Counted from the stretch's first letter, positions 17,101 to 51,589 are shown. The stretch: DNA of 58,218 nucleotides from an uncultured virus (IMG/VR IMGVR_UViG_2140918032_000035) (IMGVR_UViG_2140918032_000035); one strand, 5' to 3'. Numbers and translations: made by a program. The notes: a model not told the origin generated them from the letters alone.

Positions 17101-20100
17101 GATTTTGCTTGGAGTATAGCTGAGTCTCATTCCATTGGTTATTATTCCTTGGTAAAGACTATCTCTGATACTCGTGAGCAGAGCAATCGTGCCGGATTCG
17201 AGTTCAGTATGTATTGGGTTGACAATGGCACATATAAGTTGTTTGCAACGGGCACTTCCCAGAGCGACGGCCGTGTTTATTGGACATACCAGCTTCCGAA
17301 CTACGGACATCTTGAGGATGACGGCGAGACTATTACTCCCTTGACGGGTACGAAGACCTACAACCTTGAGATCCTTACAGGTGAGACTTACGAAGTTCGT
17401 GAGGAGGCTGTTTACTATCCTTATGGTATCCAGGCTTCCGGACTTCAGTATATCCCTATTGCGCCTCAGGGCTGGTCCACTCAGACGACCAATGGTACGA
17501 TCGAATACTTCTATAAGTCTGTAACTCTTAATACAAGCCAGAGCTTTGCAGATACAGAAGATAACAACTGGACAGAATCCGCAGGCTTCTCTGTCTATAA
17601 GACAAAGCCTACCGGCGATTTGTTCGATTTCTCGAAGGTAACATTTACTGCTTACACTTATGTTGGTGGCACACGCTACGACATCGCAACAGGTACGGTT
17701 GACACTAACGGTAACATTACTTGGACTCGTACTGATACTTCCGGTTACGGTATCTATCAGGCAGGCAACTATGACAACCGCACTTCTGTCAACGCACTCG
17801 TTTCACTCCCTTGCGGAACCTACTATGTAGAAGAGGCTTGGGACAAGATGTATGTCGATACTCTTGACGCATCCACTCAGGCTGCTGTTGAGGTATTCGC
17901 CACTAACAACACATCAGGCTGGACTACAAACGATGCAGGTACGAAGTACATCAGTACGATTACCGTCGATTGTACGACACCTAACACAACAACAACTGTT
18001 GCTCTGAACAACCCTCAGAACGATTGGCATTATCAGTGGTTCTCCGCTAATAAGACAGTCACAGTTGCAGGCGACGCTTCGACGATCGAGTTCGAGCTCT
18101 ACTACAACAACGGTACTGACCTTGTTCTTTTCGCAACAGGTTATGCAGATACCAATGGTGTAGGCACATATCCTATCATCTGGGACGGATACCAGGGACC
18201 TGCTGAGTTCATTCAGAATAACGGACAGAAGATCGTTCTCCCTGAGGGCGATTACGAGATTCGTGAGATAGTTCCTGAGACTTACTACCAGAATGGTGCG
18301 GACAATGTTCCTTATACCTATATGGTACCTACCGGCTGGCAGGATCATCTCGGAGCAAATGGTCACTCTGACTATTTCTACAAGACATTCTCTGCTGCCA
18401 ATAATGCAGAAACGGTTATTAGCAGCATCAATCCTGTGGATACCCGTATCGAAGCAGAGCTCACAATCAGAAAGGTTGAGCAGTCTAACTCACCTTCACA
18501 GACTTTTACCTTCGCGATCTACTATCGTGGTAACGAAGATCAGCCTTTGAACCTCGGTGATTTCTCAGACGCATATCTCCTTGACACTGTGACTGTTACT
18601 ACAACGCAGGGTACAGGACTTACCACTCTGACAAAGATACCTGAAGGTTGGTATGAGGTAGTCGAGATCAACAACAATGGTTGGGAGTGCGTATGGATGA
18701 ACGATTCCACCAACACTGCTAACGGTAAGTTGGTACACGCTTCTTCCGAGAACAAGACGGTTTCCCAGATCGTCATTCAGGATAATCTTGCTATGTTCGG
18801 AACACCGCTTTCCGGTATCTGGGCTACAAACATCATCCGTCCTGATGTAACACCTGAGAAGCACGATGCTTGGACATACGACTTGCTTGCTACACCTATC
18901 GAGCATCCTGCAAATGTTCACCTCACATTCTATCTGTACGCAGATCAGAACCAGAACGGTGTTCTTGACCAGGCAGAGATCGATTTCGGTTATATGGCAC
19001 GCATCGACAGTGATGATGACGGCGAAGTCACATTCAAGAGCATTACGGCCGGTTACTATATCGTTCGTGAGGTAGCAACCGTCAACGGATACTATTTGAC
19101 TGCTGCTGACGCTCCTGTCATCGCTTCTGATCCTGTTAACTATGTTGTTCCTATGAGCAACAAGCCTTACACAGAGACAGTCAAGGTAACAAAGGTCGAT
19201 AACGAGACGGGCGATGCTCTCTCCGGTGCAGAGTTCACAGTCTATCTCGATTCTAACGACAACGGCGAATTTGACGCAGCCGACCAGGTTGCTCAGATGT
19301 GGAACGATGCTAACGGCAACGACATCGTTGACGCAGGCGAACTTTCCAACGCAGTTCTCGTTGAGACCTCAACAGGTATCTATGAGAGTTACGAGCTCCA
19401 CTTCAACGACGGATTCGTTGATGCTGACGGTGATGGTATCCTCGATGCCAACCACTTCGGCAACCGCTACTTCATCGTAGAGACCAAGGCACCTGATAAC
19501 TACTTCTTCGTTAACGCAGACGGTACTTTCTCTAACACGAGCCGTGTTGAGACCTTCACAGTTGATAAGAAGGATACTACTGCAGCTGACTTCCAGGTCG
19601 GTTCCAACGAGTACACCTTCCGCAACCAGACGGGTACAGTCTTTGCGAAGAAGACAAACCAGAACGGCGAGTTCCTTTCCGGTGCAGAGTTCACAGTTTA
19701 CTCTGATGCAGCTTGCACTCAGGTAGTCGGCGTTCTCACAGAGGATACGACTAACGAGACTTATTCCTACAAGGGACTCGGTCTTGGAACCTACTACCTC
19801 AAGGAGACTAAGGCTCCTACTGATTTCGAAGTCGATCCGAACGCTTATGAGTTCGAAGTTACACTCAACCAGGTACACCCTGTTGTTGTAAACTTCATGT
19901 CTTATAAGTACAACATCGACGGAGCGTTCGTTGATGTCGAGATCCATACAACGGCAAACGATCCTCTGATCGCTACACCTGAGAGCTCTTACAGCATCAT
20001 TGCAAGAGAGTCCACAGCAACAACGATCGTTGACCTCGTTTACTTCGACGGACTCATCATCGGCACTAACTACTCCGTAACGGGCGACCTCGTTTACCAG

Positions 20101-22074
20101 AAGGCATTTGACGGTCACGCTGCAGGTGAGGTCATCACAAGCAAGACTGTAACATTCGTTGCAGGCGACGCTAATGACGCTTCACAGCACTTCACAGTCA
20201 ATGCTGACGGCACGACAATCGAAGGTTATATCGAAGTTGAGTTCACAGTCGATACGACAAAGATCTTCACTACGATCGTCGCTTTCGAGAGAGTCGAGAA
20301 CCTTGACACGGGTATGGTAGTGGGCACACACGCTTCACTTACTGATACTCCTCAGACAAAGGTAGTACCTCACATCGGTACAACGATCACTGACCAGCAG
20401 ACCATGATCAACCAGGCTTCGCTCGGCGGTATCGTAACCCTTAACGACACAGTCGCATTCGAGAACCTTGTAAAAGGCGAGACCTATACTGTTGACGGTA
20501 TCCTCTACGATGTCGATACTCAGGCAGAGTATAAGGATGCAGACGGCAAGACTGTAACGAACTCCGTAACATTCGTCGCTGACGGCACTGTTACAGATAC
20601 CTTCGTTCTCAATGGTCAGGTCATCGAGCTCGTATCCGGCACAGTCGATGTAACATTCAAACTTGATGTTACTGATCTTGAAGGCAGAAGTTTCGTAGCT
20701 TACGAATATCTGTCTATGGTAGGTGACAACGGCCCTGTCCAGATTGCTTCTCACGAAGACATCAACGATGAAGGCCAGACGATCCATGTTCCGAAGATCA
20801 GAACACACGCGAATGTTCCTGACGAGACTATCCGCCTCGCACCTGCAGTTGAAGAGTACATCTTCACTGATACGGTTTCTTTCGAGAACCTTATCGTTGG
20901 TAAGGAATACACGGCAAGCGGTATCCTTATAAACGCAGAGACAGGTGAGATCCTTCTCGACGAAGACGGCAACCCTTACACGGGCGAGACAGTCTTCACA
21001 CCTACAACGCCTAACGGCACAGTTGATGTTCAGTTCACAGTCAACACTCTCTGGCTCCAGGGCACAACGGTCGTAGTATTCGAGGATCTGTATTACAACG
21101 GAATCAAGATTGCTACACACGCTGACCTCAAGGATACAGAGCAGAGCTTCGACATCCCTGAGCTCCATACAACTGCCACAACGGCTATCGGTAATGTTGT
21201 TGAGTATTCTACTCAGGCAGTCGTAACCGACCGCGTATTCTTCTCCAACCTCATCGTTGGTAAGGAGTACACAGTTACAGGTAACCTTGCTATCAAGGGC
21301 ACAGAGAACTTCGTTCTCGACGCTCAGGGCAACAAGGTAACGGCTACCCAGACCTTTACTGCTGAAGCAAGCGAAGGATATGTTGATGTAGTCTTCACAT
21401 TCGACGCTACGCTTTATCAGGGTGAGACTCTCGTAGCATTCGAGACGCTCACATACAACGGTATTGAGTACGCAACACACGCCAACATCGACGATGAGGA
21501 ACAGACAGTCTATGTTCCCGCGATCGGTACAACTGCCACAGACGCTAACGGCAATAAGACCTTCCAGGTAACTGACCAGGCAACCGTTATCGACGAGATC
21601 GCTTTCGAGAATCTCGAAGTCGGCAGAACATACCTCGCAGAAGGTCTCCTGATGGATAAGACCACAGGCGAGCCTCTCCTCGTCAACGGTGAGCAGGTAA
21701 CAGCAAGTGCGACATTCGTACCTGAAACTGCTAACGGCAAGGTAACAGTAACATTCACATTCAACGCGAGTGCTCTGGCCGGCAAGTCAGTAGTCGTATT
21801 CGAGAAGGTCTATGACATCTCCGGTACAACATCTATTGACAAGGATACAGGTCTTGTTGTCACAGACGAGACGGCTAAGATCCTCATTGCCACACACGAA
21901 GACATCAATGACGAGAACCAGACGGTTAACATCATTGAGACCAAGACCGGCGACAACTCCGGTTTCGGCACATTCGCAACTTGCGCTGCAATCGCCGCAG
22001 GCGTAGCAGGTATCGCAGGACTCGCTTATGTGGCACTCGGCAGAAAGAAAAAGAACCAGCAGGGTGAGGCGTAA
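14161..22074 (+). CDS. Giant sortase-anchored surface protein: S8 peptidase-like, NlpC/P60-CHAP-like, SpaA isopeptide and VaFE repeat domains
   Basis: Signal peptide; VAVIDSG, HGT, SAGN, STSE; GCIEYV..PGDILVF..HIAIY; YLKETKAP SpaA motifs; VAFE/VVFE..H.D..D..Q repeats; KTGD plus TM plus KKKN tail. Confidence 0.9.
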   Translation: MHKNRTFKSVCAIAVSALLVMQNLSPAVSVLADEIKDNDETNGTTIVSVAEPTVVPAESDEVVVVPADETEETVDENVDSVPADDAEPTEVSEDVDTNPPIEQTDVTEPSAETEVTEATEATEATNVEETEPTEATEATEETTVETEEPVEEVTEDLTIVDEPAEITIAQSAEEYADLVAGLSDYERVIVNTTDDLNGLVIAGGVYYDGTYIIGFANDADLNSAIGYFAAMGYEYALDGDMDLCGVGDGVILYGETNPSATVKVAVIDSGSNNANEYYSVIGDDTADYNGHGTDMCNYILNETNDAYIISIKAFGDSKASVADVTAAIELAESLDVDYILLAMSIRDNGQYEAFESLIAGTNATVVASAGNNGRDAQNYLPARVDGVVTVGAVEDDAIYLRDFSNYGTCVNYYIQADSTSEAAAKALGILIAGTEEEFLAISAIKPSVSIAYAEGSAEYLELDEVRLSANGATLEAFSTSDMQAAGYANAAEWNQGILNHRAGGHYCAGGCIEYVSWVVNRTGLTTSHGGGSTWTWNYDGVTTLMNGAGYSDPSAVGIIGIRRPSYTNGNYESIAQTDFAALYNYITTYAEPGDILVFGNYSDTSTSYKWKHIAIYNGTTTQTWHGQSIAISLSEANGNDSNSNNNRILNAEDLVNWTNSSGSADTSSNSGTKNWETVVILKAANTPPDLPLGLAKVNTASAYNTMTQGNSCYDFAGTQYTLYADQACTQVLFTYTFGSDGHTTGDIYKLPGAEIANEPTYFLKETAAGPGYIIDNTVYSVSFHADRTVTVSGGSNATVTISQSADADHPAEITLADEPMTDPFGITVRKENKVNTTTTFRMDAVTFHIQYYAGEYNVNTSLAGVIPTDDFYVTITNTSANDYISKMLRLQQFAGQDSSVTVTGDNDYLAGVYNSGVSDNEPLGTYVIQESTAPTGYEVNPTVYRVRMYDAGNGYATTQIVNVTTNTDVTGRITVTNGLSDFAWSIAESHSIGYYSLVKTISDTREQSNRAGFEFSMYWVDNGTYKLFATGTSQSDGRVYWTYQLPNYGHLEDDGETITPLTGTKTYNLEILTGETYEVREEAVYYPYGIQASGLQYIPIAPQGWSTQTTNGTIEYFYKSVTLNTSQSFADTEDNNWTESAGFSVYKTKPTGDLFDFSKVTFTAYTYVGGTRYDIATGTVDTNGNITWTRTDTSGYGIYQAGNYDNRTSVNALVSLPCGTYYVEEAWDKMYVDTLDASTQAAVEVFATNNTSGWTTNDAGTKYISTITVDCTTPNTTTTVALNNPQNDWHYQWFSANKTVTVAGDASTIEFELYYNNGTDLVLFATGYADTNGVGTYPIIWDGYQGPAEFIQNNGQKIVLPEGDYEIREIVPETYYQNGADNVPYTYMVPTGWQDHLGANGHSDYFYKTFSAANNAETVISSINPVDTRIEAELTIRKVEQSNSPSQTFTFAIYYRGNEDQPLNLGDFSDAYLLDTVTVTTTQGTGLTTLTKIPEGWYEVVEINNNGWECVWMNDSTNTANGKLVHASSENKTVSQIVIQDNLAMFGTPLSGIWATNIIRPDVTPEKHDAWTYDLLATPIEHPANVHLTFYLYADQNQNGVLDQAEIDFGYMARIDSDDDGEVTFKSITAGYYIVREVATVNGYYLTAADAPVIASDPVNYVVPMSNKPYTETVKVTKVDNETGDALSGAEFTVYLDSNDNGEFDAADQVAQMWNDANGNDIVDAGELSNAVLVETSTGIYESYELHFNDGFVDADGDGILDANHFGNRYFIVETKAPDNYFFVNADGTFSNTSRVETFTVDKKDTTAADFQVGSNEYTFRNQTGTVFAKKTNQNGEFLSGAEFTVYSDAACTQVVGVLTEDTTNETYSYKGLGLGTYYLKETKAPTDFEVDPNAYEFEVTLNQVHPVVVNFMSYKYNIDGAFVDVEIHTTANDPLIATPESSYSIIARESTATTIVDLVYFDGLIIGTNYSVTGDLVYQKAFDGHAAGEVITSKTVTFVAGDANDASQHFTVNADGTTIEGYIEVEFTVDTTKIFTTIVAFERVENLDTGMVVGTHASLTDTPQTKVVPHIGTTITDQQTMINQASLGGIVTLNDTVAFENLVKGETYTVDGILYDVDTQAEYKDADGKTVTNSVTFVADGTVTDTFVLNGQVIELVSGTVDVTFKLDVTDLEGRSFVAYEYLSMVGDNGPVQIASHEDINDEGQTIHVPKIRTHANVPDETIRLAPAVEEYIFTDTVSFENLIVGKEYTASGILINAETGEILLDEDGNPYTGETVFTPTTPNGTVDVQFTVNTLWLQGTTVVVFEDLYYNGIKIATHADLKDTEQSFDIPELHTTATTAIGNVVEYSTQAVVTDRVFFSNLIVGKEYTVTGNLAIKGTENFVLDAQGNKVTATQTFTAEASEGYVDVVFTFDATLYQGETLVAFETLTYNGIEYATHANIDDEEQTVYVPAIGTTATDANGNKTFQVTDQATVIDEIAFENLEVGRTYLAEGLLMDKTTGEPLLVNGEQVTASATFVPETANGKVTVTFTFNASALAGKSVVVFEKVYDISGTTSIDKDTGLVVTDETAKILIATHEDINDENQTVNIIETKTGDNSGFGTFATCAAIAAGVAGIAGLAYVALGRKKKNQQGEA

Positions 22075-22096
22075 TGCCTCCCTTGCCTCGGGCTTG

Positions 22097-22158
22097 TTCT
22101 TAGACTGACAGCGGGCCTCGGAGGTAACACTTCGGGGCCTGTTACTGAGTTTAAGAAC
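22097..22158 (+). terminator. Long intergenic stem-loop between adhesin and sortase
   Basis: GTTCTTAGAC..GGCCTCGGAG-GTAACA-CTTCGGGGCC..GTTTAAGAAC. Confidence 0.55.
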
Positions 22159-22241
22159 TCTAAATCATTCAGACAGAACACGAGCGGGGCAGTTGCCATT
22201 TTCCTTATCTGCTTCGCAGCTTGTTAGAAAGAGGGACCTTT

Positions 22242-23081
22242 GTGAACAGATTGGCACGCGTTAGAGCAAAGAACCTGGGTAAGAAAATGCTGTTAGCCGT
22301 TTGCTTCCTTGCGATCGGCGTTGCCGGTTATTTCCTTGCCCGTATGATCCTGATTGAATACACACAGCAGGAAGCAGAGAACCACTATAAGACTCTGGTT
22401 GAGGAAGTTCAGGTGGGAGAAGAAGATACCGTCGAAGAAAGACTTGAGGAGGTGCAGCCCGCTGCTCCTTTGGAAGTTCTCCCGGAGTATGCCGACCTGC
22501 TTGCAGAGTATCCCAATTTCGCAGGTTGGATAAGTATTCCGGATACGGATTTCAGTTATCCTGTTATGATCGCTCCTGAAGATGATGCGAACTACTATCT
22601 GTTCCACGCTTATGATGGTACCCGCACGGACCTCGGTTGTCCTTTCATTCCGTATTACAGCGATTACAATGCTGATAACATTCTGATATACGGTCATCAC
22701 ATTCGCAATCATCGTATGTTCGGATTCCTGTCTTATTACCAGGACGAGGACTTCTATAATGACCATCGTTTCATCTTCTATGACACACCGTACCAGCATC
22801 GCATCTATTATGTGGTCTCGGTCATGATAATCTCAGTCGAGGATCCCCGATTCCATTTCCAGAGCTTCTCTAATTGGGGTTCTTTAGGTCAGTCGCATTT
22901 CTATAACCAGGAATGCTTCAACCGCAATCTCTTTGATTCTGACACATTGCCTGACGACGGTGCGAAATTGCTCACCTTGATAACTTGTGAGTATTCCATA
23001 CCGAATGGTAAGGGAAGATTGGTCATCGTTGCCCAGGATGTCACGGCTTATGACGATAATACGAATGCCACTTCTGGTTGA
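22242..23081 (+). CDS. srtB: Class B sortase
   Basis: N-terminal TM; GWISIPDT..YPV, NILIYGHH, MFG.L, LTLITC..GR catalytic motifs. Confidence 0.9.
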   Translation: MNRLARVRAKNLGKKMLLAVCFLAIGVAGYFLARMILIEYTQQEAENHYKTLVEEVQVGEEDTVEERLEEVQPAAPLEVLPEYADLLAEYPNFAGWISIPDTDFSYPVMIAPEDDANYYLFHAYDGTRTDLGCPFIPYYSDYNADNILIYGHHIRNHRMFGFLSYYQDEDFYNDHRFIFYDTPYQHRIYYVVSVMIISVEDPRFHFQSFSNWGSLGQSHFYNQECFNRNLFDSDTLPDDGAKLLTLITCEYSIPNGKGRLVIVAQDVTAYDDNTNATSG

Positions 23082-23370: not shown

Positions 23371-24151
23371 ATGAAACGCAAGAAAATGACTATCGTACTT
23401 ATGGCTATAATGGTTATGGTCGCTATGACGGCTTGTTCCGTTGCCAAATGCAATGCCAAACCTGAAGCCAAACCTGAAACAGAGACTTCTGTTACAGTTG
23501 TAAGCGGCGTTGACACAACGACAAACGCTACAACTACTGCCAAACCTACGGTTACAGGAACTCCTACAACCAACGGTACAACGACCGGCACTACTACCGG
23601 TACAACCACAACGAACGGTACTACTGTTGCGACAAACGGTACTACAACAGGTACAACTGCCGAGGGTACAACGACTGTTGCTACTACGACAGAGGGTACT
23701 ACGAAACCTACTGAGGCTACGACTACCACTACAAACGGTACGACTGCCACAACAACTACTACTACGACAACAACAACCACAACGGTTGCAGAAACAACAC
23801 CTGCACCTGTTGAGACAACACCTACACCTACTGAGCCTGAGCCTACGGCTACGACACCCGCAGAGACAACTCCCNNNNNNNNNNNNNNNNNNNNNNNNNN
23901 NNNNNNNNCCTACTGAGCCCGAGCCTGCAACACCTAATCTCCACGCTACCGCCGATGTTAGTGTTTATACTTACAACGCAGATGGCGACATGGAGTTCAC
24001 GGTTTACGGTGTTACAGTTTACAGAAACTCCGAGGATCTTCCTTGGAAAGTAGCTGATCCCGATGCTCTTGAGGCCGAGATCGAGGCCAAATGCCCTGAC
24101 TTCGGTTCTTACAGCACTACGATCACCAATGTCAGAAATGTAAGACCTTAA
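23371..24151 (+). CDS. Thr/Pro-rich mucin-like lipoprotein (interrupted by N-gap)
   Basis: Lipobox MTAC; poly-Thr and PTEPEP repeats on both sides of the gap. Confidence 0.75.
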
Positions 24152-28858: not shown

Positions 28859-28978
28859 CATTGCTTATCGGCGGCTTTGTTGCCGCGGGNNNNNNNNNNN
28901 NNNNNNNNNNNNNNNNNNNNNNNNNNNNNNNNNNNNNNNNNNNNNNNNNTGGAATGCGTGCCGCTGACGGGAGGCATT

Positions 28979-31343: not shown

Positions 31344-31700
31344 ATGAACAACGATCTGAAAACAAAGATTATAGACGAGCTTCACATTGCCCGGAACAAG
31401 GCTCTGGTTGCCAAACGCACTCTGGAAGACGAGGCTATGGCCGATCCCAAGCACGAGTTCTGGATCCGCGGCAGCAAATCACATCTGCTCGGTAAGGAGC
31501 ATCGCGGGGAACTGATCGGCCTGAGCGACTTTCTATTCCGTGTGCGTGATGACGATTTCAACGCCGATGTGTTCCTTGACAAAGCCCGCCGGGAAGCCAA
31601 TCGAATGCGAACTGACGGGAATGATGAAGACAAGGCTTTTGCAGCGGGGCTGATAAAGGCACTTGACCAGATCGAAGCAGTTTGGAAAGAACCGGCCTGA
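31344..31700 (+). CDS. Hypothetical protein
   Basis: Last gene of operon, start MNNDL. Confidence 0.65.
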   Translation: MNNDLKTKIIDELHIARNKALVAKRTLEDEAMADPKHEFWIRGSKSHLLGKEHRGELIGLSDFLFRVRDDDFNADVFLDKARREANRMRTDGNDEDKAFAAGLIKALDQIEAVWKEPA

Positions 31701-31722
31701 ATATGACACTTTGATTACAGGC

Positions 31723-31750
31723 TTGAATTTTTATTTATTCCCGTTATAAT
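31723..31750 (+). promoter_or_regulatory. Sigma-A-type promoter of candidate sRNA
   Basis: TTGAAT-N16-TATAAT. Confidence 0.6.
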
Positions 31751-31756
31751 AATCTT

Positions 31757-31968
31757 AACCGTAGTATTCCTGAGCGGTTTACTTCTCGGTTAATAAACAA
31801 GGGTTCTATATAAGGCAACGCTTTTAGTTTTTTGTTTCTCAAACAAATGCCTCACGAGGAAACGCTTTACACTCAGGAAATGTCCTTCTAAGGAAACGGG
31901 TTCAACTTAAAATCGTTACTATGTCTGAACACTGCTCTCTGCGCTCCGCGTGGAGGGCGGTGTTTTTT
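31757..31968 (+). ncRNA. Candidate ~210-nt sRNA
   Basis: Own promoter and strong terminator (31928-31968); TTCCTGAG/CTCAGGAA stem; three AGG(A/C)AACG repeats; no ORF with RBS. Confidence 0.55.
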
Positions 31969-31974
31969 AACGGC

Positions 31975-32015
31975 TTGTTTTTTCTGAAATGTGAGGTTAT
32001 AATATGTATAGATAA
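31975..32015 (+). promoter_or_regulatory. tRNA promoter
   Basis: TTGTTT-N17-TATAAT; GGTTATAATATGTATAGATAA identical to the tmRNA promoter. Confidence 0.7.
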
Positions 32016-32029
32016 TTCTATAAATAACT

Positions 32030-32104
32030 GCTCGCATGGCTCAATGGTACAGCGACGGTATCGTAAACCGTAGATTCAGGGTTCGATTCCCTGTGTGAGC
32101 TCCA
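32030..32104 (+). tRNA. tRNA-Thr (anticodon CGU)
   Basis: Acceptor GCTCGCA/TGTGAGC, anticodon stem ACGGT/ACCGT with loop ATCGTAA, T-arm CAGGG-TTCGATT-CCCTG, encoded CCA. Confidence 0.92.
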
Positions 32105-32112
32105 CCCGATTC

Positions 32113-32285
32113 TTCACGAGAGGGTTTGTATTACCGGCTTTTGTAAGCTCGCTCCGGAGTTTAAGAGAGGCTCTCGTGAAACAGCATTGTTACCTCTCTT
32201 AAACACTCCTTGAACCCAAGCGAACTTTCGGCATTCTGAGTTTCTAAAGCCCTCTGTACTCGGATGCCATTACCGATCAGAGGGC
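32113..32285 (+). ncRNA. Tandem double H-type pseudoknot RNA in the tRNA trailer
   Basis: Four crossing stems of about 8-12 bp (see findings). Confidence 0.6.
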
Positions 32286-32313
32286 CCTTACTATAACTTA
32301 AAGGAGATGTGAC

Positions 32314-32565
32314 ATGTCCAACGAAATAGATCTGACGACAGCTAATTCCACTATTATTCCGCTTACCCACAGAGGCGGAATATCGGAAAAGACTATTGCT
32401 ATGATGGCAGAAGCCCACGGTAAGATGATGGAAAAGATGCACCAGGACTTAAAAGAGGGCAAGAGCGAGCTAATCGTTATGAACCCGAAAGAGAGCCTTT
32501 TACCTGAGCTGGAATATATCGGTGACGGTAAGTACCGCTTTAAGAAGGATACCCCGTCCTCTTAA
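32314..32565 (+). CDS. Hypothetical protein
   Basis: AAAGGAG RBS. Confidence 0.65.
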   Translation: MSNEIDLTTANSTIIPLTHRGGISEKTIAMMAEAHGKMMEKMHQDLKEGKSELIVMNPKESLLPELEYIGDGKYRFKKDTPSS

Positions 32566-32648
32566 AGATAAGAACACATAAAGGCAATCTGTCCTGCTGC
32601 TTCAGGGACAGAGGGTGCGGATAGCAAAGTTATGAAAGTTGGTTTATT

Positions 32649-32975
32649 ATGAGCAGAAAGTTTAATTCCGTATTCAAGAGTAAGCACGATGACATGCTCA
32701 AGAGCCTGAGGAGTGCATTGATGTTAATGGTCGCTCCGATCGTGTCTTGGGCTTTCTATTTGCGGACCGGTATGGCAGTGTCTTATTATCTGACGATGAT
32801 ATTACTCATCCCGGCTGTTGTCTTTTTCTGGGTTTTCCTCAGAGATACCGGCAGAGTCATCATCTACTACAAGTTCTATTCGCCTTATGGCGAAGACACT
32901 CCTCACGCTCAGGGTAAGAAGAAGTTATCAAAGAGACAGCGTCAGAAGTTAAAGGCTAAGGAGGGAGAGGTCTGA
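32649..32975 (+). CDS. Two-TM membrane protein
   Basis: Two hydrophobic segments, basic tail. Confidence 0.65.
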   Translation: MSRKFNSVFKSKHDDMLKSLRSALMLMVAPIVSWAFYLRTGMAVSYYLTMILLIPAVVFFWVFLRDTGRVIIYYKFYSPYGEDTPHAQGKKKLSKRQRQKLKAKEGEV

Positions 32976-36050: not shown

Positions 36051-36090
36051 TTGAGTTTTTACGGATTCGGGTTATAATATGTATAGATAA
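36051..36090 (+). promoter_or_regulatory. tmRNA promoter
   Basis: TTGAGT-N16-TATAAT. Confidence 0.65.
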
Positions 36091-36492: not shown

Positions 36493-36628
36493 CGATAGCG
36501 GGTAGTCTTTTCGGAGGCTACGAGAGATGAAAACCTACTCTCCGTCGAGCCATCGGCAGAAGCACAAACTCCACGCGTGGAAGAAAGCAAATGGCACCTT
36601 TTTCAAAGAAGAAAGGAGCTTGTTTATT

Positions 36629-42645: not shown

Positions 42646-43343
42646 CTTTGGAAGAATATATCCAGGTGAAAGATATGAACTATGATGAGTTCTGTGATCA
42701 TCTGAAACAGAAATACGGTAAGGCTCAGTACGATTACTTCAGGTTTCGTACAGGCGGGTATAAGCCCGGCGTGTTTGCCAGGGAGCCGAAGATCTCCCGC
42801 ACGAGTGAGGGACTGTTTGCCCACCATGTTAAAGAAGATCGTGCCATCCTGCTTTCTGTTCCGGATGTTGCGATCCGTCATCCGAGAGAATATCAGAGTA
42901 AAGAAAACATCGTCTATTGCGATTGGCTGGAGCATCTTTACGCTCATATCCTCATAGCAGAGCATCCCGCTCCCAATGCTGAAGAAGGCGTGGGGCTCGG
43001 AGGCTGTATCAATTACCTGGTACCGCAACTCAATGATATTTTTGCCGGTTACCAGCCGGGCAAACAATGGGAAAAGACTTGTGCCGATAAGGTGCTGACT
43101 ACTGACGGTAAGAGCAATTATGATTGCTATATGGTCCTGTTATCCAGGCTCAAGATGATATTTCTGAAGACTACCAGCTGCGATCCTGACATGGCTACTT
43201 ATTTCCTCTGCAATACTGCACAGGAAGACATTGTCGATCCGGAGATCCGCAGCAATCTGGATACCGTTTATAAGGACATCAAGAACTTACCGGCAGATCA
43301 TTGTCTTTCCCCGGAGAACTTTATGTTAGAAGGGAGAGGATAG
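42642..43343 (+). CDS. Hypothetical protein with HNH-like His cluster, C-terminus EGRG
   Basis: GLFAHH..ENIVYC..LEH..AH. Confidence 0.65.
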   Translation: MTLEEYIQVKDMNYDEFCDHLKQKYGKAQYDYFRFRTGGYKPGVFAREPKISRTSEGLFAHHVKEDRAILLSVPDVAIRHPREYQSKENIVYCDWLEHLYAHILIAEHPAPNAEEGVGLGGCINYLVPQLNDIFAGYQPGKQWEKTCADKVLTTDGKSNYDCYMVLLSRLKMIFLKTTSCDPDMATYFLCNTAQEDIVDPEIRSNLDTVYKDIKNLPADHCLSPENFMLEGRG

Positions 43344-43345
43344 AA

Positions 43346-44008
43346 ATGCCCAAGAATAACAACAAGCGCAGAGGAGCTGAGCCCGGTGACCTTGTGTTCC
43401 CGGATACGGCTTTTCTCAATAAGGTCTATTCAGACTCGTTCAATCACCGATGTTCGAGTTACAAGAGACCTTTCATCGTCGTAGGAAAGCACAGAAACCG
43501 TCCCGGAATGTCGGTCATCGTTCCTTTATCATCCAAGTTTTATTACAACTACACCAAGCTCAAGAGGCGTGTGGATCTCGGTCTGGAATTGTCTGATGCA
43601 CCGTCTATTATATTGGTATCCAATAACGCTCACAGGTCCCAGGGATATTATAACGCAGCATTGCTGATGGACCAGGCGATCGTCATACCGGATACTATGC
43701 TGAGCGTGTACCGCAGGGCTCATATCGACTATGATCTGGCTTCTCCAAAGCCTCCGATCCGTCCTACGGTACCTCTGAGCGACGATAACTATGATGTCAT
43801 TATGGCACGCTGGGAAAAGGCAGAAGCCGAATGGAAACAGTGCGAAGACAAGGCTTTACTCAAGTCGCAGGTAAATATCAACCTGATCGTTTCCAGAGGC
43901 AGGGACTTTATCAGGAAACTCTATCTCAAAGGCAAGATGGAAACAGATCTTGAGGCTACGATCGGTCGCGCCGCAGCTGTTCTGCATCCTGACATGCTGG
44001 AGTTCTGA
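43346..44008 (+). CDS. PemK/MazF/ToxN-fold endoribonuclease-like protein
   Basis: PGDLVF, KRPFIVV, IVPLSSK, LLMDQ motifs. Confidence 0.6.
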   Translation: MPKNNNKRRGAEPGDLVFPDTAFLNKVYSDSFNHRCSSYKRPFIVVGKHRNRPGMSVIVPLSSKFYYNYTKLKRRVDLGLELSDAPSIILVSNNAHRSQGYYNAALLMDQAIVIPDTMLSVYRRAHIDYDLASPKPPIRPTVPLSDDNYDVIMARWEKAEAEWKQCEDKALLKSQVNINLIVSRGRDFIRKLYLKGKMETDLEATIGRAAAVLHPDMLEF

Positions 44009-45702: not shown

Positions 45703-46028
45703 TTGCATAACCTGTTACATCTTGCTATACAAGTTGCACAACAGATAGTGGTATGCTTTTATGCAAGTTTCACATAAGATGTATCGAGTTACGCAATTTT
45801 GCACAGATCCGCACACATCTGTGCAGACATCTGTGCGGGGCCTCAAAGCCTTGGGATTATTGACTTTGCGGGTTTAGCTGCACAGATGCACAGATGTTTT
45901 CGGCATTCTTTTTTCTGGGGGTTTAAGTTTCAATAGACTTTATAGAAATGTGGTGTGTTATCTGTGCACAGCACTTCCTTATCTTGTGCAAAGCCTTGTG
46001 CGGCGGGCATTTCGGGGCTGCACAGATG
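45703..46028. repeat. Non-coding iteron-like module, copy 2
   Basis: Colinear diverged copy of 5301-5640. Confidence 0.85.
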
Positions 46029-46094
46029 TTTGTGATCGCTGTTTTCTTGTCTGTCCGCAGGCTTTTCCTGTCCGGAAAAATAATTTCTACAAAA

Positions 46095-48092: not shown

Positions 48093-48752
48093 ATGTTTGA
48101 GGTGGACAATCTGGAGCTTGTTATGGCTAAGCCGGGTGATATTATCTTTATCTCGGATTTCTGGCTCAGAAAGCAGAAAGAGACATACAGGAACCATCAC
48201 GGTATGTGGGCAGGAAGCAGACCTTATCTGGTCCTCGCCACCGGCGGTAACAGGGAAAAGTTGTTCGCGGTACCTATGACTTCCTCGGTCGGCAGGATCG
48301 CTGATGAGATCGAGGCGGCGCAGGTAAGAAACAAGAGTTCCAGGGATATGCCGATGGCTCTGTTCTGTACCACGCTGTATCCGAACAACGGCAGACATAA
48401 CGGAGCGATAGTCCTCAACTGCCCTGTCGTTGTCCCCGCGTACTCCAAGTATTGTCATCTGCCCCGGACATTTATCGGATCCAGACTCAACGAGTTGTGG
48501 CCTCCGAGCGGACATGAGTTCCGCACCAAAGAGCTTCTGAACCGTGCCCGTGAAGGGTACGACAAAGCAAAACTCTTATCGGATTACTGTCCGATGAATT
48601 ACGACTATGACGGTGTCTATTCGGACCTGTATAGATATTGCGACAAACTGTATAAACGCAAGGCGACTCTTACCAATCCTGACGCTTATGACAGATGGAG
48701 CAATCACGAGATAGAAAAGATACGGAAAGCCTTTGAGGGCTTGAAGGCGTAG
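48093..48752 (+). CDS. PemK/MazF/ToxN-fold endoribonuclease-like protein
   Basis: PGDIIF, SRPYLVL, AVPMTSS; paralog-like to 43346. Confidence 0.6.
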   Translation: MFEVDNLELVMAKPGDIIFISDFWLRKQKETYRNHHGMWAGSRPYLVLATGGNREKLFAVPMTSSVGRIADEIEAAQVRNKSSRDMPMALFCTTLYPNNGRHNGAIVLNCPVVVPAYSKYCHLPRTFIGSRLNELWPPSGHEFRTKELLNRAREGYDKAKLLSDYCPMNYDYDGVYSDLYRYCDKLYKRKATLTNPDAYDRWSNHEIEKIRKAFEGLKA

Positions 48753-49947: not shown

Positions 49948-51589
49948 ATGGCTTCCAGAAATGACAGCACACTGTTCAATCTGCTCCGTTCTTTCCAGAC
50001 TCAGCAGAATATGTTGGGCAACGAGTTTACACAGATCGGCCGTGCAGTCGGCGAAGAAGAGGCTTCTGCTGCTTTGAACTTTGCCAACATCGGTGCCGTT
50101 ATGGCTCTCGGTGCGGTTGCGTGGATGTACGGCTTCCATCTCGACAACAAAGACAAGACCGTTAAGGATTTCTTTACCAAGGCGGAACAGTTCGGAGGTC
50201 TCGGCGTTCCTATGGATGATACCGGTGCCGTGCTTGCCGACTCTGACATTCTTGTCAAGCTCAAGTCAAAGATCGGCATTGGCGATGGTACTATGAACCG
50301 CAACGAAAAGAAGGGCTTTAAGACTGTCTATAAGAGTTCCTACGACACCGTTATCGAGAATATCAGAAAGAACCAGGATACTGCCGTTCATCGTGCTCTC
50401 ACGGCGAACAATCTTTGGGACAGTTTCCTGCTCTGTCATCAGTGCAACAAGAACAACTTGTTCTTTGCAGTAACGGGTAATTGGCCGCCTTCGTTCCAGA
50501 TCAATCTCTGCGGAGTCGATCCTCAGGAGATTGCCGAGCTCAAGAAGACTCTTGCCAAGTGCGGAGTTACTATGGAAGCCTCGATGGCAGCCGGTAAAGA
50601 CGGCTTCTACAACCTCGGCGGNNNNNNNNNNNNNNNNNNNNNNNNNNNNNNNNNNNNNNNNNNNNNATTCTCTGACTAAGGCTGCTAAGGCTCTGAAGGG
50701 TAAGACTTTCAATGTTGAAGTCAAGCCTGATGTTTTTGATGATGTCAGTGCGGCAGAAATTATTACCGAGCATCGCGATAAGCATACTCTGACTTTGACT
50801 ACTACTGCAGACGACTCCGAGATGAAGTTGCTCATGCACTATTCCAAGAGGTTCGGAGGCGAGTTCACGGAACTTGATACCGACCTTGGTGTCGTTGACA
50901 TCGGCAAGGCGGATTTCAAAGAGTTTGAAAAGAACATGTCGCTTCACGGATTTGAAGTTAAAGACCTCGGCGATGGCAAGGTTTCCGTCAAGGGCAGTCT
51001 GCTGAAGATAAGAGATATGAACGGAGCATCGGTCGGCCTTGCTGACGGTGCATTCGACGGTATCAAGAAGGCGATCACAGACGGTACTCTCAAGGTATCT
51101 TATGCGTTCCACAATCCTACGGGATTTGACGGTCTGATGCAGTTGCTCTTCGTGGCAAACAGCCGTCTGTCCGGTGTCTGGGGCAACGGTTCCGGCTGCG
51201 ATACTATCAAGCAGCAGATCAAGACCTTTGCCAAGACGCTTCAGATCGATCCCCGCCGTGCCGGGCTTGGTCTTATGTACGGCGAAAAGCGTGGTGCTGC
51301 CATCTTTGAGAGATCGCTCCGTTCGCTCGTTATGGATGAGGAAATGGCTGCTATGTTCGATCTCGATATGAGGACCGAAGACGGCAAGCCTGTTCACGCA
51401 TTCTTTGACGAGAAGGGTAACTGCAAGGTTACGAACCTTCTTAATGCAGAACAGCACACTGAGTTTGCCAGAAGACAGCAGGAACAGCTGCTCGCAGGAC
51501 TCCAGGATCTTCTCAAGAATGTTCCTGTTGCACCCGACGGCTCACCTACTGCTTTTGCAAACGGTCAGTTGAACAACTTGATAAAGTAA
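49948..51589 (+). CDS. Hypothetical transfer-region protein (interrupted by N-gap; may be one gene)
   Basis: Open frames on both sides of gap 50622-50666. Confidence 0.55.

Follow-up and report, generated by a model that had tools for sequence, protein, structure and literature searches.

A 186-nt element encoded directly behind a tRNA-Thr gene of an uncultured phage is a real, new, conserved and transcribed non-coding RNA. The DNA analysed here (the window, 58,218 nucleotides) makes up the final 58 kb of an IMG/VR virus record of 120,218 nt, and nearly all of its long open frames lie on the + strand. The phage sequence was traced through public runs to cattle gut or rumen and anaerobic-digester metagenomes. 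Its open frames include a sortase-domain protein, an ADP-ribosylglycohydrolase and a DUF488 protein, and its genome holds 31 tRNA genes in all plus one tmRNA gene. The sortase gene hints at a Gram-positive host. To our knowledge, few phage non-coding RNAs have a known role, and several marks of function come together in this one: it changes more slowly than the adjacent protein genes, it is expressed in rumen and sludge (four studies), it follows a promoter of the type used for the tmRNA gene, and its interleaved pairing is rare. In a 120-kb phage with so many tRNAs and a tmRNA, the element may take part in a wider remodelling of host translation or RNA decay. The tRNA-Thr gene and the element sit in a 613-nt gap free of long open frames (31701-32313), with the following order:

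31975..32015, + strand: promoter of the tRNA-element unit; TTGTTT, 17 nt, TATAAT (31998-32003) and start region, the hexamers read from the sequence
32030..32104, + strand: tRNA-Thr gene, anticodon CGT (CGU in RNA), CCA encoded; ARAGORN, Rfam tRNA 62.1 bits
32105..32290, + strand: structured RNA element, 186 nt; 3' trailer of the tRNA and 5' leader of ORF83
32291..32313, + strand: hypervariable linker, 23 nt, with the RBS AAGGAG at 32301-06
32314..32565, + strand: ORF83, 83 aa, conserved small protein of the tRNA-element unit

Transcription was assessed over 31600-32800 in six RNA runs (X5, X6 and X17-X20, from four studies) and two DNA runs (X1 and X3). This evidence consists of assembled contigs, in which single molecules and true ends are not shown and depth cannot rank the parts of a gene. 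A contig crosses the 3' end of the tRNA (32104/32105) into the element in five of the six RNA runs: X5 (32053-32641), X17 (32046-32290), X18 (32040-32209), X19 (32041-32290) and X20 (32029-32297, followed by about 1 kb more), the last starting at the mature 5' end of the tRNA (32029). Transcription past the tRNA, whose absence had been named in the initial annotation as a reason to abandon the element, is thus seen in these contigs. Furthermore, tRNA, element and ORF83 are found in one RNA contig in X5 and X20. The first arm of the structure does begin 8 nt after the CCA, which ends at 32104, as had been noted. Release of the element by tRNA processing, expected earlier from this spacing, is treated here as an inference; the tRNA gene encodes its own CCA, and in Firmicutes we would therefore not expect RNase Z to carry out the release.

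The promoter is also of a kind with that of the tmRNA gene. Its 21-nt core, GGTTATAATATGTATAGATAA (31995-32015), recurs without any change at 36070-36090, a short way before the tmRNA gene, and once more, with 2 mismatches, at 23310-26; these copies look like a phage-specific class of strong stable-RNA promoters. The promoter of the tRNA unit is missing from our promoter-scan list because its -35 hexamer matches at only 3/6 positions. The tRNA-Thr(CGT) gene is solitary, has its own promoter and lies far from the main tRNA cluster of the genome:

36116-36492: tmRNA gene (ARAGORN, Rfam)
Genome 18830-22832, minus strand, outside the window: cluster of 30 tRNA genes

The tmRNA is phage-encoded and one-piece, with the tag ANETELAVA and a score of 134 bits. 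An ORF starts with ATG at 36527, only 35 nt past the tmRNA gene, which is the same layout as that of the tRNA-Thr unit, a stable RNA and then an mRNA. Several gaps of 120-285 nt between the genes of the 30-tRNA cluster leave room for further small RNAs.

The constraint on the element is much stronger than that on the neighbouring genes. Across four related strains the element has 0, 0, 2 and 5 substitutions per 186 nt, and 6 of its 186 positions are variable in any strain, whereas the genes flanking it differ by 4-18% or cannot be aligned. The strains compare with the window as follows:

Strain A (X1, X5 and X6): 0/599 substitutions and one 1-nt deletion, in a T-run, over 31692-32290; 19-20/510 substitutions in the downstream flank, 32291-32800 (Fisher p=3e-7 with 19 entered)
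Strain B (X3): 1/570 substitutions and two 1-nt deletions over 31692-32261; flanks 12/105 upstream and 10/214 downstream
Strain C (X17 and X19): 2 differences (32182 and 32183) in about 245-250 nt; 27/151 in ORF83 (2/245 against 27/151, p=2e-10); unalignable directly past 32290
Strain D (X20): 7 differences in 32029-32297 and 5 in 31692-31900; flanks beyond 31692 and 32297 unlike the window

Fisher tests of the conserved block against its flanks gave p values from 2e-5 to 2e-10. All four strains are variable or unalignable from 32291 on, and the left boundary of conservation, placed from X3 and X20, lies at 31692-31704. The 23-nt linker between element and ORF83 (where strain A has a 3-nt deletion and 5 substitutions, X3 has indels, and X17, X19 and X20 cannot be aligned) is the most variable stretch in every strain and serves as an internal gauge of the neutral rate. 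Neutral sites have indeed diverged in strain A, since 7 of its 8 changes in ORF83 are synonymous, against 0/186 in the element. In addition, the predicted loops and linkers are invariant to the same degree as the stems, a pattern more in keeping with sequence-specific binding than with a role of shape alone.

The element had been proposed to form a tandem H-type pseudoknot (PK1 and PK2), with extra possible pairs. A script check found all four main pairings at the positions given for them, three exact and one bulged with a G-U pair, and the three exact ones were recovered independently by a repeat search. These pairings and the helices predicted from folding are:

32113-22 / 32171-80, + strand: PK1 stem 1, TTCACGAGAG with CTCTCGTGAA, exact reverse complement, 10 bp
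32159-70 / 32193-204, + strand: PK1 stem 2, GTTTAAGAGAGG with CCTCTCTTAAAC, exact, 12 bp, 0-nt junction
32230-41 / 32258-68, + strand: PK2 stem 1, GGCATTCTGAGT with ACTCGGATGCC, 11 bp, T32235 bulged, one G-U
32249-56 / 32278-85, + strand: PK2 stem 2, GCCCTCTG with CAGAGGGC, exact, 8 bp
32122-28 / 32211-17, + strand: helix X, GGGTTTG with TGAACCC, from the minimum-energy fold, with a compensatory change
32135..32151, + strand: hairpin H1, inside helix X, from minimum-energy folds, prediction only

In both PK1 and PK2 the arms interleave in the order 1-2-1'-2' and have no bases in common, which is the H-type arrangement. PK2 stem 1 in its paired form reads GGCAT(T)CTGAGT / ACTCGGATGCC, with a 1-nt junction. 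The hairpin of PK1 stem 2 can be extended to 32156-32209, and its 22-nt loop contains the 3' arm of stem 1 (32171-80). The loops of PK1 (36/12 nt) and PK2 (7/9 nt) are presumably long enough to be bridged. Such interleaving is rare: a scan for interleaved pairs of perfect helices (each of at least 8 bp, span up to 120, junction up to 1 nt) returned two in the whole 120,218-nt genome and seven altogether in thirty dinucleotide-shuffled genomes. Two caveats concern PK1: 5 bp of each stem come from a common GAGAG/CTCTC motif, and the G/U-rich element permits 41 alternative helices of at least 6 bp. One of the two pairs is the 10+12 bp pair of the element and the other lies at 45827-45968. The latter was considered as a sister RNA element and rejected, being a DNA repeat array built of repeated TGCACAGAT(G) motifs. 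At least eight copies of TGCACAGAT(G) occur in both orientations at 45800-46030 of the window, in a 468-nt gap free of long open frames, and this array looks like iterons or operators, as in an origin or a regulatory region.

Folding calculations also point to a structured RNA, with a fold z-score of -2.7 to -3.0. The best nested fold (-57.3 kcal/mol) and the knotted fold, for which a rough two-knot sum gave -59.6 kcal/mol (with a penalty of 9.6 kcal for each knot), are predicted to be about equal in stability, and forcing PK1 stem 1 in a nested fold of 32105-32300 gave -54.9 vs -58.6 kcal/mol for the unconstrained fold. PK2 stem 2 is present in every minimum-energy fold. In a longer fold, PK2 stem 1 finds an alternative partner at 32295-32300, and that this only strong competitor falls in the hypervariable linker is one point in favour of PK2 stem 1. 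Neither crossing stem (32113-22/32171-80 and 32230-41/32258-68) has a variant inside its pairs in the four strains. The element likely folds into a knotted structure, and a tandem pseudoknot is plausible. For the core, the folds lead us to infer that helix X closes a three-way junction with H1 and stem 2.

The substitutions between strains bear on this core. X20 carries both G32124>T and C32215>A, which turn a G:C into a U:A pair in helix X, and folding the reference sequence by itself also yields the pair 32124:32215 at minimum energy. GGGTTTG/TGAACCC, listed earlier as an extra possible pair, is therefore the sole helix with a compensatory change. Another X20 change, T32235>A, affects the bulged T of PK2 stem 1, and A32248>G would add a G:C pair with C32286 to PK2 stem 2. 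All three listed X20 changes outside helix X, these two included, and both X17/X19 changes are at unpaired or bulged positions, so that no proposed pair is broken; positions 32182 and 32183, which vary in X17 and X19, are in the loop of stem 2 and are the sole variable positions there. When 5-6 substitutions were placed at random, the probability of at least one compensatory change was 0.013-0.02 under the initially proposed model or the minimum-energy fold (about 0.002 with no broken pair as well) and about 0.1 when all 41 possible helices were counted (3.5e-5 with no broken pair). There is just one covariation event because the element homologues compared diverge by no more than about 3%, and as a single event it is suggestive of the helix X fold.

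The initial annotation did not recognise the family of this RNA, and our searches agree with it. Among 4227 Rfam families, only tRNA and tmRNA matched the whole window at gathering score, and the six non-tRNA matches obtained at E<=10 in 31700-32700 are all far below gathering scores, with none within 32105-32290. Riboswitches, T-box, ribozymes, ROOL/GOLLD, 6S and Y RNA thus gave no covariance-model match for the element. A T-box reading, considered for an ACG codon in stem 1, was rejected, with no UGGA found by eye and no Rfam match. Homologues of the element were sought by blastn against GenBank phages, which gave no genuine match; in IMG/VR by ORF83, by the ORF83 alignment, by a 22-nt element pattern and by the 3' part of the tRNA, which gave no homologous locus; and in GTDB genomes by alignment and by a gapped element pattern, with the same outcome. 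An IMG/VR search with the anticodon arm of the tRNA returned 10 loci, none with the element behind it. Two JGI metagenome loci from an alignment search (L002 and L003) were discarded, as they have only an LLPELEYIGDG stretch in common with our locus and no tRNA.

A short fragment of the element was abundant in one RNA run:

32132..32233, + strand: 102-nt core, abundant short RNA insert, run X6 only

It was recovered as a 114-nt contig in which 32132-32233 is flanked by adapter on both sides, with a word depth of 1211.6, compared to 18.5 and 55 for the flanking phage contigs of X6, contig depth being a poor measure. When the fragment is folded, H1 begins 3 nt from its 5' end and a closing helix stops 2 nt short of its 3' end, the pattern expected from exonucleases that trim an RNA down to its folded core. 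The fragment lacks the 5' arms of PK1 stem 1 and of helix X, and PK2 stem 1 is cut. These missing arms make it less likely that the stable form is the full tandem knot, unless the severed 5' piece remains attached. PCR may also have over-amplified the fragment by chance (a jackpot), or another source may have supplied an identical RNA.

The most likely working reading of all these data is a processed stable RNA, with a cis-acting mRNA leader as its main rival. We tentatively favour, at somewhat less than an even chance, an element that is cut from the tRNA-led transcript and accumulates as a stable small RNA binding a conserved host or phage partner. A promoter in common with the tmRNA gene would drive a tRNA-element-ORF83 transcript, which tRNA maturation and an endonuclease would separate into tRNA, element and ORF83 parts, and nucleases would then trim the element to a core of about 100 nt. 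In the folded RNA, helix X, H1 and stem 2 would meet in the three-way junction, with the 32249-85 hairpin behind it, and the crossing stems 32113-22/32171-80 and 32230-41/32258-68 may add the pseudoknots in at least one state. The folded core would survive and act in trans through sequence-specific binding of its conserved partner. Besides the single covariation event, the one-run fragment, the limits of contig data and the chance of recombination discussed below, two points count against the stable-RNA reading. The element always precedes an ORF83 homologue in the four strains, as a cis leader would, and no trans target stands out in the phage genome: the stem-2 loop found only 8-10-mers there, with 27.5 8-mers per strand expected by chance, so that no phage-genome site exceeds chance.

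A 5' leader of ORF83 acting in cis, either by protecting the new 5' end left after tRNA removal (as a 5' stabiliser or an xrRNA-like block) or by setting ORF83 translation, is possible and comes next. It would agree with the single RNA contigs spanning tRNA, element and ORF83 in X5 and X20, with the identical gene order in all four strains, with the start of the element 8 nt past the CCA and with the predicted three-way junction, in which the 5' tail pairs with a loop. In addition, flaviviral xrRNAs stop the bacterial RNase J1 in vitro (PMC5760640). However, a stabiliser needs shape rather than sequence, and here the loops and linkers are invariant as well. The linker to the RBS is hypervariable, which indicates that the element does not pair with the RBS. 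Furthermore, the abundant fragment has its 5' end (32132) within the proposed knot rather than immediately before it, and its 3' end at 32233, thus apart from ORF83. Even as a leader only, the element would show clearly how a tRNA can mark a processing site in front of an mRNA.

The ORF83 family comprised 21 proteins in our search, the window's own included, with SLLPxLEYIGDGKYR invariant. Its more distant homologues (P0016-P0021), known as proteins, have 52-65% identity, and two of them are encoded on contigs of 105,896 and 68,168 nt. ORF83 had no Pfam or PHROG match. Its structural model consists of one long helix and a small beta-hairpin (pLDDT 76), and a comparison with the PDB gave no match at E<=0.001 and hence no clue to RNA binding. 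The order tRNA-element-ORF83 is kept in four of four strains, the loose ends of the contigs reading RBS, ATG and TCT.

A bolder form of these ideas, in which a double-pseudoknot RNA of a new class, punctuated by the tRNA in front of it, acts either as a protein-free block to bacterial 5'-to-3' exonucleases, with its 5' tail set against the three-way junction, or as a decoy capturing a conserved host RNA-binding machine during takeover, appears rather unlikely. Should the knot stop exonucleases or sequester a host factor, it would offer a compact RNA tool and a type of phage-host interaction that are both new, and an exonuclease block, if true, would be the first native xrRNA-like element of a bacterial virus. 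The predicted element resembles flavivirus xrRNAs in its three-way junction and in a pseudoknot that involves the 5' segment. It differs from them in topology, since the apical loop of stem 2 is the partner of its 5' tail, as well as in its far longer stems and the lack of an Rfam match. Moreover, the sole defined 5' end of a fragment, 32132, which comes from the contigs of one run and not from end mapping, is inside the proposed knot.

We consider it improbable that the element is a ligand- or polymerase-binding regulatory RNA, that is, a riboswitch, a ribozyme or a put-like read-through RNA that modifies RNA polymerase. Near-total invariance is typical of RNAs with a fixed partner, and the position directly behind a strong promoter and the pseudoknot-type complementarity would also agree with this. 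Against it, apart from tRNA and tmRNA elsewhere in the window, the 4227 Rfam families gave no match at gathering score, and none at E<=10 in 32105-32290, the element is followed by neither a terminator nor an RBS-sequestering helix, and no self-cleavage motif was recognised in it.

The chance that there is no function at the RNA level seems small too. In that case, the cassette would have spread recently by recombination, or be a DNA site, and the pairings would be incidental. A recent exchange of the entire non-coding cassette by recombination could look like constraint, conservation does span the entire 31692-32290 block with its promoters and terminator, and the other interleaved-helix locus of the genome is a DNA repeat array. 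However, conservation ends sharply at about 32290 in four strains and has a left boundary in X3 and X20, the compensatory change makes sense at the RNA level only, RNA contigs come from four studies, and the fold z-score given above points the same way.

Lastly, a type III antitoxin-like decoy (a pseudo-ToxI) against ToxN-type nucleases, as proposed in the initial annotation, is highly improbable. Type III antitoxins (ToxI) are pseudoknotted RNAs and phages can carry mimics of them, so the proposal had the suggested pseudoknot fold in its favour. ToxI-like RNAs consist of tandem direct repeats of about 34-36 nt and have a cognate gene for a ToxN/AbiQ-family endoribonuclease, and Tandem Repeats Finder gave 0 rows at a score of at least 30 in 31600-32400. 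The ORFs at 43346 and 48093, described earlier as ToxN-fold nucleases, are 11-16 kb from the element and had no Pfam or PADLOC match at E<=1 (43346-44008 and 48093-48752) and no PHROG match at E<=0.001 (searched as 43301-44008 and 48093-48752), so that the ToxN-fold label finds no support in their sequences. Lacking repeats and a nuclease-family match, the reading fails on its defining features; the element differs from ToxI in having no tandem repeat array, no adjacent ToxN-family gene and no sign of repeat-unit processing.

Closer parallels to a processed stable RNA exist. The 3'ETS-leuZ sponge and the rtT RNA of E. coli come from the spacers of tRNA precursors. The element is like them in lying directly downstream of a tRNA on the same transcript, from which it would be freed by processing to act as an RNA, and co-transcription directly downstream of the tRNA, which defines the 3'ETS type, is found in the contigs of five of six RNA runs. 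It is unlike them in being phage-encoded, far more structured and also the leader of a protein gene, and it has no sequence or Rfam match. The leaders of Firmicute mRNAs that act as 5' stabilisers, such as the ermC leader and STAB-SD, likewise place a structured or SD-like segment near the 5' end, upstream of a gene, and the element has GAGAGG motifs. In contrast to these leaders, it is much larger, is conserved throughout its length, and has a sub-fragment without the ORF as its abundant species in one run. RNAC and RNAD of phage T4 are located in the T4 tRNA gene region. The element is, like them, a phage-encoded small RNA, and the function of RNAC and RNAD is still unknown (PMC9697503). It differs from RNAC and RNAD in its place behind a lone tRNA that has a promoter to itself and lies far from the 30-tRNA cluster.

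The conserved block holds a second candidate, upstream of the tRNA:

Window 31723-31968: candidate small RNA, with a promoter-like site, body, terminator and RNA contigs

Its promoter-like site, TTGAAT-16-TATAAT at 31723-50, has 10/12 matches, and the body would be about 150-200 nt long and would end in a strong terminator, with its hairpin at about 31927-65 and a T-run behind it. Contigs run from 31767/31770 to 31900/31918 in X17 and X18, with an adapter at 31770 in X17 (depth 62); X20 covers 31692-31900 (depth 260) and X5/X6 cover 31600-31918, which makes four studies altogether. In the most distant strain 5/209 nt differ, and 31723-31968 had no Rfam match. RNA contigs of two studies end at 31918 without a loose end, whereas the DNA contigs of X1 (42 kb, from the same sample as X6) and X3 run on, and this is a weak hint that a separate upstream transcription unit ends there; 31919-32028 is uncovered by RNA contigs in all six RNA runs, which is a mere lack of cover. 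A pairing of this small RNA with the element (GGGTTCAA/TTGAACCC, 8 nt, with TCACGAG in common) was dropped because matches of such length are expected by chance, 27% of 300 shuffles being equal or better.

Runs of N (masked) occur at 23875-23908, 28890-28949 and 50622-50666 of the window, outside the region studied. At the other end of the unit, the X5 contig with tRNA, element and ORF83 (depth 101) stops at 32641 and the next contig has a depth of 3.6. In the X17 relative, 32577-32637 is replaced by 9 other letters. The 3' end of the tRNA-element-ORF83 unit may lie near 32590-32660.
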